In this document: positions 56,022 through 58,116 of the stretch, piece by piece
How positions within the stretch are numbered: position 1 is the first letter of the stretch
How the letters are laid out: each line of letters begins with the position of its first letter
Origin: Candidatus Woesearchaeota archaeon
Lineage (GTDB): Archaea; Nanobdellota; Nanobdellia; Woesearchaeales; GW2011-AR4
Assembly (NCBI GenBank): GCA_018303655.1
Contig: JAGVXT010000021.1
Span: forward strand, 18,811-82,810
Length of the DNA stretch: 64,000 bases
Direction: 5' to 3'
The notes under the pieces: generated by a model
What the model saw: the letters and a program-made list of their open reading frames with translations, nothing else
Told to the model about the DNA's origin: nothing
Databases searched by the model: none
Position numbers and translations under genes: made by a program

Positions 56022-56822
56022 ATGCCTAAAACTAAAATATCCATAACCATCAATGGGAAGACTTTGCAGGACATAGATTCTATCATTGACAATATATATA
56101 TTCGCAACAGAAGTCAAGCTATAGAGCACCTTGCGAAGAACGCTTTGGGAGAGAACAAGGCTGCTGTTATTCTACTTGGGGGCAATGACGGGCATTTAAG
56201 AATCTCAAAGGAAGATTACAGGCCGACTGCAAGAATAAAAAATAATTCTGTTATAGAACTGGGGCTGAAAAAGCTGAGGGAAAACAATTTCAAGACTGTG
56301 TTCATTGTCGCAAGGCATAATTTATTGACAAAATTGTTTGAAATGCTGAAAGACGGCACAAACTATGGCGTAAAAATAAATTATATTGAAGAAAAATCCT
56401 CCAATGGCACTGCAGATTCTTTGAGGCTGTTAAAAGGAAGGGTTAATGCCAATTTCCTTGTTGTTTACGGCGATTTAATCTTTAACAAGATAAACATTGA
56501 GGAATTGTGGAATGACCACATAAAGCAGAATGCAATTGCAACAATAATGCTTACAACATCTTCAAAGCCAAGCGAAAAAGGAACTGTAAGGGTTGAGGGC
56601 AATAAAGTACTTGCCTTTACGCAAAAGCCTAAAAAATCCGATATTTACCTTGTGTTTTCCCCTATATTTGTTGCAGAGCCCCAGATTTTTGAGTACTCCG
56701 GAGCCAGCCTGGAATTCAATGTTTTTCCTGAACTGGCTGACAAAGGGCTTTTGAACGGACATTTGAGTTCCGAGAAAGAGGTACACATTCATACAAAAAG
56801 AGACGTTGAGAATTTAAAATAA
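56022..56822 (+). CDS. Ribbon-helix-helix domain fused to a degenerate sugar-phosphate nucleotidyltransferase domain
   Basis: N-terminal KISITI...IDSI...RNRSQAIE (RHH); GTADSL, VYGD, QKP NTP_transferase remnants; GxGTR motif lost. Confidence 0.78.
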   Translation: MPKTKISITINGKTLQDIDSIIDNIYIRNRSQAIEHLAKNALGENKAAVILLGGNDGHLRISKEDYRPTARIKNNSVIELGLKKLRENNFKTVFIVARHNLLTKLFEMLKDGTNYGVKINYIEEKSSNGTADSLRLLKGRVNANFLVVYGDLIFNKINIEELWNDHIKQNAIATIMLTTSSKPSEKGTVRVEGNKVLAFTQKPKKSDIYLVFSPIFVAEPQIFEYSGASLEFNVFPELADKGLLNGHLSSEKEVHIHTKRDVENLK

Positions 56823-56966
56823 GGTGGACAGCTTTTCCAGTTTCCCACACATAAGTGAAGTACTGCTGGAAACGGAGGCTTGCTTAACTTCCGTGAACCC
56901 GGAAAGTGCTTGGTGCACATCCTTTCGGGATGGGAACGGGTGAACCAAGCCCCTATGACCGTCCAA
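56823..56966 (-). rRNA. rrf: 5S rRNA gene with a 28-nt insert in loop C
   Basis: Helix I TGGACGGT/GCTGTCCA, CATAG, CCCGTTCCCATCCCGAA...CACGGAAGTTAAG, AGTAC, TGGGAAAC; ends approximate. Confidence 0.92.
56896..56923 (-). other. Putative BHB-type intron in 5S rRNA (AGGATGTGCACCAAGCACTTTCCGGGTT)
   Basis: CCCG/CGGG 4-bp helix with AAA and UUC bulges; removal restores CCCGAACACGG. Confidence 0.75.
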
Positions 56967-56987: not shown

Positions 56988-57003
56988 ATTTAAAAAGGTT
57001 TCT
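56988..57003 (-). promoter_or_regulatory. BRE/TATA promoter of the 5S rRNA gene
   Basis: Minus-strand AGAAACC-TTTTTAAAT about 24 nt upstream of the 5S 5' end. Confidence 0.6.
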
Positions 57004-58116
57004 CTATATTTCTACAATAACCTTCCTCTCTTTTTCATTAACTTCTTTTATTGTTTTGTGATTTTTTAATTTTTCCTTAATCTCTTTCCATGAATGTTTT
57101 TTCGATGCCTTATTGAGTTCGTCAATAATTTCTTTTATCAGCTGGTAGTTCTGGTAAATAAGCTCTCCTTTCTGCCTTGATTCGTGCTCTTCCTTTCTAA
57201 GCTCTCTTATTGTCTGCTGCTGGCTTTCGATGATTCTTTGCAGTTCCTTTAGCTTCTTGTCAAACTCTGTTTCTTTTGGCTCCTTGAAATGAGAGAAGAA
57301 AAATGAGACAGCCTCGCTGAATGCTGGAAATGATTTTTTTTGGTTATTTTTATAAAATTCAAAATCAAACGGAATGACATCAGCAACATTGTTATTTTCA
57401 TCGAAAACAACAAAAGCCTCAATTTTTTTATTTGTTATCTTTTTAATTGAGTTTGTGATTAATTGTGCTTGTTTTTTGTCAATGTTTTTCGGATTAATGC
57501 TTTTGTCAATATTTGAAATCAGGCAGACCTCCTCTGAATACAGGCCTCCTAAGCCAAGCTCTGTTGCCAGAGAAGTCACTAACGAGTCTTTTTTGGAATT
57601 TTTTAACAGAATTGCTAAATCCTCTTCCTTTAACTCAAATAAGTTATAGCTCATCACAGGATATACATATTTCAGTTTTGGCTTTATGCTCCTTTCCCGG
57701 AAATCATGGTGCTCAAGCGCATTCATAATTACATTATGCTCGTCGCAGAGAATTGCGTTTCCTTTTCCAAAGAATTCAGCATAAAGGAATTTCTTTTCTT
57801 CTTTGGCCCTGAACGTTAATTTTATGATTCTTTCAGGATTTATCTGTTCCATCTCTGTCAAAAAATACCCATCAATATGCTTCCTTAAAAACTGCCCGAA
57901 GCCAAGGATTTCCTCATAAGATTCCTTTTCTTCTGCAATGAAAATGGATTTTCCTATGTCAATCCGCAGAAGCCTTTTGCCTGCATTGGTCTTGTAAAGG
58001 CTGAAAACTATCAGTTCTTTCTCAGGCTGGTATATCTTGTCTATTCTTGAGTCTTTCAAGGCTTGCAGCTCTTTAACAAGGTAATGCAAATCTATTGACG
58101 ATAGCTGTTTTTTCAT
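57004..58116 (-). CDS. NFACT/Rqc2 (RqcH/FbpA) family protein, N-terminal and coiled-coil part only
   Basis: LSSIDL..LVKEL, RIDKIYQ, LRKHI, EQ..ERI, EFFGKGN.IL, GLGGLYSEE, GELIYQNY. Confidence 0.85.
   Translation of the reverse strand: MKKQLSSIDLHYLVKELQALKDSRIDKIYQPEKELIVFSLYKTNAGKRLLRIDIGKSIFIAEEKESYEEILGFGQFLRKHIDGYFLTEMEQINPERIIKLTFRAKEEKKFLYAEFFGKGNAILCDEHNVIMNALEHHDFRERSIKPKLKYVYPVMSYNLFELKEEDLAILLKNSKKDSLVTSLATELGLGGLYSEEVCLISNIDKSINPKNIDKKQAQLITNSIKKITNKKIEAFVVFDENNNVADVIPFDFEFYKNNQKKSFPAFSEAVSFFFSHFKEPKETEFDKKLKELQRIIESQQQTIRELRKEEHESRQKGELIYQNYQLIKEIIDELNKASKKHSWKEIKEKLKNHKTIKEVNEKERKVIVEI

Follow-up and report, generated by a model that had tools for sequence, protein, structure and literature searches.

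A predicted bulge-helix-bulge intron in the 5S rRNA gene of a Woesearchaeales archaeon, one of three such sites in its lineage

Introduction

Archaeal introns are known in tRNAs, in 16S and 23S rRNA, and in a few mRNAs. Outside tRNA and rRNA, the intron of cbf5 was described in one report as the only other bulge-helix-bulge (BHB) intron then known (PMC7714728). Relaxed forms of the splicing motif have been defined (PMC4090602), and their cleavage has been tied to specificity loops L1, L2 or L3 of the splicing endonuclease EndA (PMC5829648). Insertions in 5S rRNA have been described as expansions kept in the mature molecule, which lack complementarity to the 5S core and spare its conserved motifs (Stepanov and Fox 2021, PMC7812874). 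The accessible text of that study lists four bacterial orders and the Halobacteriales as the groups concerned, with no DPANN lineage, and treats the confirmed cases as retained; it presents 5S positions 42-43 as blocked by uL5 and positions 52-53 as tolerant. Phrase and topic searches of the published literature, in which most items were represented by titles and the beginnings of abstracts and few subscription papers were included, returned no 5S rRNA intron, and the accessible portions of two further papers (PMC6125680 and PMC12918454) mention none.

Here we describe a 5S rRNA gene with a 28-nt insert in the genome of a groundwater Woesearchaeales archaeon, within a stretch of 64,000 nt that was analysed as a whole (the window; contig JAGVXT010000021.1). 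The genome holding the window is called G000, and other G and L labels denote compared genomes and loci.

The 5S rRNA gene and its 28-nt insert

The sole Rfam match within the window is a 5S rRNA gene on the minus strand (RF00001, 56966-56823, 144 nt), which scores 55.7 bits against a gathering score of 38. The RF00001 alignment has 29 bases opposite a single loop-C position of the model, and confirms the proposal of an earlier note on this DNA that a 28-nt insert at 56896-56923 interrupts the conserved loop-C motif CCGAAC. The parts of the gene are listed here in order of transcription, with the evidence for each in parentheses.

56924..56966, minus strand: 5S exon 1, 43 nt, ending CCCG-AA (Rfam RF00001; boundary from the register under which the intronless consensus is regained)
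56926..56929, minus strand: exon strand of the central helix, CCCG (pair probability 0.74-0.84; 96.9% of cells paired in the site-A alignment of 8 genes, with one double change)
56896..56923, minus strand: predicted BHB intron of HBh' type, 28 nt, at site A (alignment, register and fold)
56902..56922, minus strand: intron hairpin, GGA/UUC and GUGC/GCAC with loop ACCAA, forming the h' helix (fold)
56898..56901, minus strand: intron strand of the central helix, CGGG, followed by the 3' bulge UU-C (fold and covariation)
56823..56895, minus strand: 5S exon 2, 73 nt (Rfam RF00001)

The first base of the insert completes the 5' bulge (AA-A, the hyphen marking the predicted cut), a 21-base hairpin follows, and the last six bases consist of CGGG and two bases of the 3' bulge (UU-C). 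The minimum-energy fold of the precursor includes both the central helix, in which CCCG (56929-56926) pairs with CGGG (56901-56898), and the inner hairpin (pair probability 0.57-0.59). The helix, the 3-nt bulges and the hairpin are as the note had drawn them; helices I-V of the 5S rRNA are still foldable with the insert hairpin in place. The intron-side helix h', which closes the 5' bulge, has four of its first five pairs in this gene, and four or five of five in all 42 inserts considered below. The exon-side helix h reads U-A, an A-C mismatch, C-G and C-G; the note had called it weak, and its strict pairs indeed have a probability of 0, with a cost of ~7 kcal/mol for the strict fold. The insert falls in the relaxed HBh' subclass and lacks the continuous exon-side helix that marks the strict hBHBh' motif.

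Cutting both 3-nt bulges after their second base would release the 28 nt and give a 5S rRNA of normal length. The note's claim that these cuts restore the canonical 5S sequence stands, and its length of about 115 nt is corrected to 116 nt. The predicted product matches the nearest intronless relative at 104 of its 116 bases, and the register used (17) is the single best one for this gene under a profile of intronless genes.

The insert's own folding energy is unexceptional (z -1.6). A loose BHB-plus-hairpin filter, which was defined with the inserts already known, has 1,164 matches in G000, or ~1.8e-5 per position and length; the 5S insert passes it with position and length fixed by the alignment, and its geometry exceeds chance expectation. 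The identical 28 bases are present in the 5S gene of another species of the genus (G025) and on metagenome contig L245, possibly from the same sample as the window, and the insert is thus no artefact of one assembly. A 13-mer from the intron core is confined to three of 289 loci, all with this same intron, and BLAST finds no other copy in G000, so that no donor sequence was found.

Two other explanations of the insert were rejected. A group I or group II self-splicing intron has a catalytic core of some hundred bases, against 28 nt here, and a tandem duplication does not fit an insert whose end is complementary to the exon and not a repeat of it.

Inserts at three sites in related 5S genes

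5S genes were gathered from 60 relatives (matches in 42 of 61 genomes), from the genus (27 of 43), from an even draw across the order (136 of 151, with all long matches taken and only some of the short ones) and, by DNA search, from the family (46 of 70). This gave 73 complete 5S genes, 71 of which were parsed, 36 being of normal length and 35 long. Left out of the counts were two short genes on which parsing failed (L008 and L011), one unreadable entry (L175), two with the 3' half alone (L213 and L217) and two short genes that were chance matches (L053 and L106). G205 is among the intronless references and in the family tallies, G163 and G174 enter the order tally only, and none of the conclusions depends solely on these three genomes.

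Inserts are present in 35 of the 71 parsed genes, for a total of 42 at three sites six bases apart (11 at site B, nine at site A and 22 at site C), with up to two per gene and both B and C occupied in seven genes. We take sites B, A and C to correspond to E. coli 5S positions 40/41, 46/47 and 52/53 respectively. Inserts occur in 21 of the genus's 28 complete genes for 5S rRNA; the order draw, with filters that lose weak matches, has a match longer than 130 nt in nine of 136 genomes. The exons keep helix III in 34 of the 35 insert-bearing genes, the other being unscored. A pattern search through named genomes lacked stringency: among the 80 listed of its 119 matches are 11 5S genes, eight of them with inserts, and six of these eight repeat sequences already counted and were not recounted.

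Two side observations concern these sequences. The site-B insert at locus L212 111-210 (G009) is 74 nt long against 28-44 nt for the others, and may hold a nested intron or a repeat. Four entries titled 'uncultured Methanosarcinales archaeon' (L057, L074, L087 and L122) have Woesearchaeales-type 5S genes with inserts, and their titles are probably mislabelled.

Excision registers were chosen with a profile built solely from intronless genes, under which the register used is the best or tied best for 38 of the 42 inserts; the other four were set by hand, three at site B, where the profile preferred a neighbouring register, and one in a gene with a shorter loop. The note had looked to homologous inserts for BHB geometry and covarying pairs, and the relatives provide both. 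At the register that restores the canonical 5S, 37 of 39 distinct inserts have a central helix with four of four Watson-Crick pairs and the other two have three of four. The same full helix appears in 0-3 of the 39 when the register is shifted by 1-5 nt, in 0-7 when the 3' strand is slid by 1-3 nt, and in a mean of 0.63 (maximum 4 in 2,000 rounds) when the inserts are shuffled.

The central helix is maintained by compensatory changes, most clearly at site C, where the exon and intron tetramers co-vary (CUCG/CGAG in 13 inserts, CACG/CGUG in four, and three others). Tetramers from the same gene are fully Watson-Crick at this site in 19 of 20 cases and swapped pairs in none of 212, a control that is weak at site A (5 of 34 swapped pairs fit) and at site B (10 of 20). 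In an alignment of 17 of the 20 distinct site-C inserts, the three most divergent being omitted, pairing is 100% in the central helix, 92.9% in the intron stem and 50% in the exon-side helix, with 24 two-sided changes and 0 of 500 shuffles as high. The eight site-A genes show 96.9% pairing in the central helix, 83.3% in the intron stem and 68.8% in the exon-side helix, with one double change and 8 of 500 shuffles as high; these shuffle counts are not probabilities, given that the genomes compared are related, and the site-A covariation comprises few events among related genomes.

Twelve further metagenome matches at site A include ten with all four pairs of the central helix and two that are plain tandem duplications without a BHB. 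Three of the ten (L242, L244 and L249, with inserts of 32-35 nt) lie in a quite different 5S lineage and may represent independent use of the same insertion site; on the one contig examined, the 5S gene of L244 adjoins a DUF1512 gene.

Inserts of the same design in rtcB and EF-2

The ligase RtcB is encoded in G000, and rtcB is itself interrupted. A 30-nt insert in its active-site motif (G000:C18, L044 2772-2743, minus strand) contains an in-frame TGA and has a central helix with four of four pairs and a 10-bp stem. RtcB was matched in 58 of 70 family genomes, and in 22 family genomes chosen for rtcB stops or split matches there are 26 inserts at five positions, with stops or frameshifts. When the register is the one that restores the motif of uninterrupted relatives, the central helix has four of four pairs in 13 of these and three of four in 12, with one unsolved. 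The 12-nt inserts of L229 and L230 (rtcB of G016 and G001), which each include a stop codon and have a fully paired exon-side helix, are nearly as short as BHB introns get. In EF-2, the first GTPase motif likewise holds a 30-nt BHB insert, with stops and full stems, in four of 22 genomes, at the following loci.

L259 (G031): EF-2 insert
L260 (G021): EF-2 insert
L262 (G206): EF-2 insert
L263 (G214): EF-2 insert

With such stops or frameshifts, the inserts in rtcB and EF-2 must be removed if the proteins are made, and in the case of rtcB the ligase would have to act on the very transcript that encodes it. Their likeness in size and build to the 5S inserts is the strongest indirect argument that the 5S inserts are spliced as well. 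A genome-wide hunt for mRNA-intron motifs in G000, which served solely as a background rate, gave the 1,164 motifs mentioned above and 57 ORF-joining candidates, from which rtcB was recovered and the remainder was noise. Open frames of ~930-1,220 aa with split matches were also seen, in rtcB of G061, G067, G196, G205 and G211 and in EF-2 of G063, G034 and G036; these are consistent with inteins near the mini-intron positions of other genomes.

These interrupted frames bear on the foremost rival explanation, that the insert is an expansion segment of the Halococcus or Thermoanaerobacterium type, whose hairpin remains in mature 5S rRNA and faces outward from the ribosome. The insert is a self-contained hairpin with which helices I-V remain foldable, as retention would have it, and site C, if our numbering of it as 52/53 holds, coincides with a position at which bacteria retain an expansion in mature 5S rRNA (PMC7812874). 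Retention does not, however, explain the fixed 4-bp helix, the 2+1 bulge register at three sites, the covariation with the exon, or the same design with stop codons in rtcB and EF-2. Moreover, the insert splits and pairs with CCGAAC, the nearby positions 42-43 are blocked by uL5 according to the same study, and uL5 is unchanged here, with no internal indel relative to three intronless relatives. We consider a retained expansion unlikely.

Splicing enzymes and tRNA introns

Excision as a BHB intron would call on EndA and RtcB. G000 has one EndA gene (PF01974 and PF02778), with Tyr, His and Lys aligned to the catalytic residues of solved enzymes, and tblastn at E 1 finds no second EndA subunit in this genome; given the single subunit gene, the enzyme is probably a homotetramer. 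Its best match is PDB 3iey_A, presumably from Nanoarchaeum equitans. Compared with PDB 1a79, which we take to be the M. jannaschii EndA, the G000 protein has no insertion at the specificity loops, and none before the His, where 3iey_A has six extra residues, and the EndA of 12 family relatives has no such insertion either. As relaxed cleavage has been tied to those loops (PMC5829648), a loop-less EndA counts against easy cutting of a relaxed junction.

The tRNA genes weigh the other way. ARAGORN finds only 16 tRNA genes in G000, the majority containing introns; several further ones carry inserts in the D-loop or T-loop, and automatic re-splicing solved part of 23 candidate regions. The tRNAs include non-canonical introns with broken exon-side helices, two of them in the D-loop. 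Removing the D-loop introns of the C18 tRNA-Met and C25 tRNA-Asn (named by anticodon), whose exon-side helix has one of four pairs, regains a near-full cloverleaf; since these tRNAs are restored by removal of introns as relaxed as that of the 5S gene, the cell must handle such a junction somehow.

The neighbourhood of endA varies. A 383-aa ORF with a LAGLIDADG domain (L043 1973-3124, G000:C36) lies directly downstream of endA in G000 and is distantly like the 5S-linked nuclease described below (E 3.7e-19), and in G036:C1 and G024:C21, unlike in G000, no more than about 1-2 kb separates endA from the 5S gene.

A second rival explanation has the insert cut out and the ends left unjoined, giving a 5S rRNA in two base-paired pieces of 43 and 73 nt, like bacterial intervening sequences. 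The fold places loop C within the closure of helix III, and such pieces would presumably stay paired. Against this, RtcB is present, the like inserts in rtcB, EF-2 and tRNAs need ligation to yield a product, and the register giving back the canonical loop is kept with single-base precision. A two-piece 5S rRNA appears to us even less probable than a retained expansion.

Gene context and copy number

The predicted intron lies in what appears to be a stand-alone 5S gene, with the following flanking features.

56989..56996, minus strand: TATA-like box TTTTTAAA, ~26 nt before the 5S 5' end; a likely promoter, with the 5S gene standing alone (sequence)
56816..56822, minus strand: T-rich tract right after the 5S 3' end, in overlap with the convergent gene's stop codon (sequence; similar tracts in genus relatives)
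57004..58116, minus strand: upstream neighbour, NFACT_N (Rqc2-like) gene, a synteny marker (Pfam PF05833, E 2.6e-48)
56022..56822, plus strand: downstream convergent neighbour, nucleotidyltransferase-domain gene, a synteny marker (Pfam PF00483, E 4.7e-21)

A TATA-like box, read by eye, is found upstream of all 28 complete 5S genes of the genus, with or without inserts, and the T-rich tract is a likely terminator. The NFACT_N gene occupies the same position in several relatives, whether the insert is present or not. In the convergent gene (56022-56822, plus strand) the nucleotidyltransferase domain begins at residue 48, and the 47 N-terminal residues have no Pfam match.

The note's case would have been weakened by an uninterrupted 5S gene elsewhere in the genome, and BLAST, Infernal and nhmmer find no second copy or fragment in G000, an assembly that is 88% complete and in which the 16S and 23S genes are not assembled. 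Genus genomes carrying inserts likewise showed no second full copy. A preprint reports one 5S gene in 203 of 208 complete Nanobdellota genomes, and its accessible text mentions no 5S intron (10.64898/2026.05.13.725050). The last rival explanation, a dead copy or assembly artefact with a normal 5S gene elsewhere, is lent some room by the 88% completeness, the unassembled large rRNA genes and the two simple duplications among the 12 metagenome matches, and is nonetheless highly improbable in view of the same insert in a second species, the inserts in 21 of 28 genus 5S genes without a second full copy, the intact promoter box and helices, and the single 5S gene usual in the phylum according to that preprint.

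Possible mobility of the inserts and a candidate nuclease cassette at site C

The predicted introns are distributed patchily, as seen when their sites are placed on an EF-2 tree, which mixes carriers of site-A, site-B and site-C inserts in well-supported groups: G000 (site A) clusters with G016 and G021, both site C (support 99/98), as does G020 (site A) with G019 (site B; support 100/99). The EF-2 loci (L254-L276) include two variants ~63% identical within one genus, which suggests paralogues or exchange; since this tree of a single marker splits the genus into two deep variants, only its small, well-supported groups are used.

A free-standing LAGLIDADG_3 gene of ~225 aa, in three families, lies just downstream of the 5S gene and antisense to it at eight of 19 site-C genes, as follows.

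L032, L033, L035, L036, L037, L289, L278 and L280, antisense: LAGLIDADG gene downstream of a site-C 5S gene

Five of these eight genes were used to build the search profile. With at least 1,000 nt of flank, no such gene was found beside 5S genes with A or B inserts only (0 of 13) or beside intronless 5S genes (0 of 19), and it is absent downstream of all nine site-A genes, G000 included. An orphan 5S 3' half, starting near site C, follows the LAGLIDADG gene in five of the eight cases. From this arrangement, site C may harbour a homing-like cassette made up of intron, new 3' exon and nuclease. Orphan 5S 3' fragments also occur in two other settings, ~1.4 kb downstream of a site-B gene with no nuclease (L216, G196), and with no 5' half in the 3.6 kb examined (L288, G030). 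We infer that introns of this kind are near-neutral elements, with frequent gain, loss or exchange.

Discussion

The 28-nt insert in the 5S gene of the window is very probably a BHB intron spliced by EndA and RtcB, a known mechanism in a host RNA, 5S rRNA, for which the literature searched gave no earlier report. The note had arrived at this interpretation from the window, and it gains support from the comparative predictions, which held, and from the presence of EndA and RtcB genes in the same genome. Beyond what the note described, the insertion site is one of three 5S intron sites in the lineage, and inserts of the same design interrupt the rtcB and EF-2 frames.

In the proposed pathway the 5S gene would be transcribed alone from its own TATA box, and the 3' end of the intron would pair with the last bases of the exon to form the 4-bp central helix. 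The 5' cut would fall within a genuine bulge of 3 nt that the intron hairpin closes, and the 3' cut on the margin of an internal loop bounded by the native helix III, as in the relaxed HBh' form. EndA, probably as a homotetramer, would cut after the second base of each bulge, RtcB would seal the exons into a 116-nt 5S rRNA, and the released intron would be circularised or degraded.

A broader reading for the Woesearchaeales joins these observations. Micro-introns of the tRNA type would have escaped into 5S rRNA at three sites and into the rtcB and EF-2 messages, placing ribosome assembly, translation and the ligase itself on one EndA/RtcB pathway; a plain single-subunit EndA would cut relaxed motifs without a known specificity loop; and a free-standing LAGLIDADG nuclease would spread at least one 5S intron by homing. 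We lean towards this reading as a whole, with considerably less assurance than we attach to splicing of the 5S insert.

If the insert is spliced, 5S rRNA joins the substrates of EndA, and provides a very short substrate for a loop-less EndA acting on relaxed junctions. With rtcB perhaps needing its own product for its expression, the lineage could serve as a model for the genome-wide spread of protein-spliced introns. There is also a consequence for annotation: seven of 27 5S matches in the genus are below the Rfam cut-off and one gene with two introns was missed altogether and found by DNA search alone, so that DPANN 5S genes can be scored as missing because inserts push their matches to or below the cut-off.

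Several described systems come close to this one. The retained 5S expansions of Halococcus and the Thermoanaerobacterales are likewise self-folding inserts in 5S rRNA, 13-109 nt long and, in bacteria, in the same region (PMC7812874). The G000 insert differs in that it both splits and pairs with CCGAAC, and theirs do neither; the only archaeal site given in the accessible text of that study is at 104.1-105. The relaxed HBh' introns of tRNAs (Marck and Grosjean 2003, as presented in PMC4090602 and PMC5829648) share with it a central helix of 4 bp, an intron-side helix that is present and an exon-side helix that is broken, multiple introns per gene and, by prediction for the 5S insert, cutting behind the second base of the bulge and the EndA/RtcB pathway. 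Here, by contrast, the host is an rRNA, and the EndA is without the loop insertions credited with relaxed specificity (PMC5829648).

The introns of the crenarchaeal cbf5 pre-mRNA and of the HVO_1309 5' UTR resemble the 5S insert in having a host that is neither a tRNA nor a large rRNA (PMC7714728, PMC2738675); theirs were found to be spliced by experiment, while the present one is in a structural RNA and is known from sequence. The rtcB and EF-2 inserts look like further cases of the cbf5 type. The 16S introns of the Thermoproteales (Jay and Inskeep 2015, PMC4496867) have an rRNA host, a length below 50 nt, an ORF-less hairpin and a BHB core in common with the 5S insert, and in both systems the sites are a few bases apart and some introns appear to owe their spread to a nuclease whose gene lies outside them (co-conversion). 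Those introns differ from the insert described here, which lies in a stand-alone, single-copy 5S gene of a DPANN lineage, and the nuclease, found at site C only, is free-standing beside the gene, whereas that of the Thermoproteales is inside another intron (PMC4496867).
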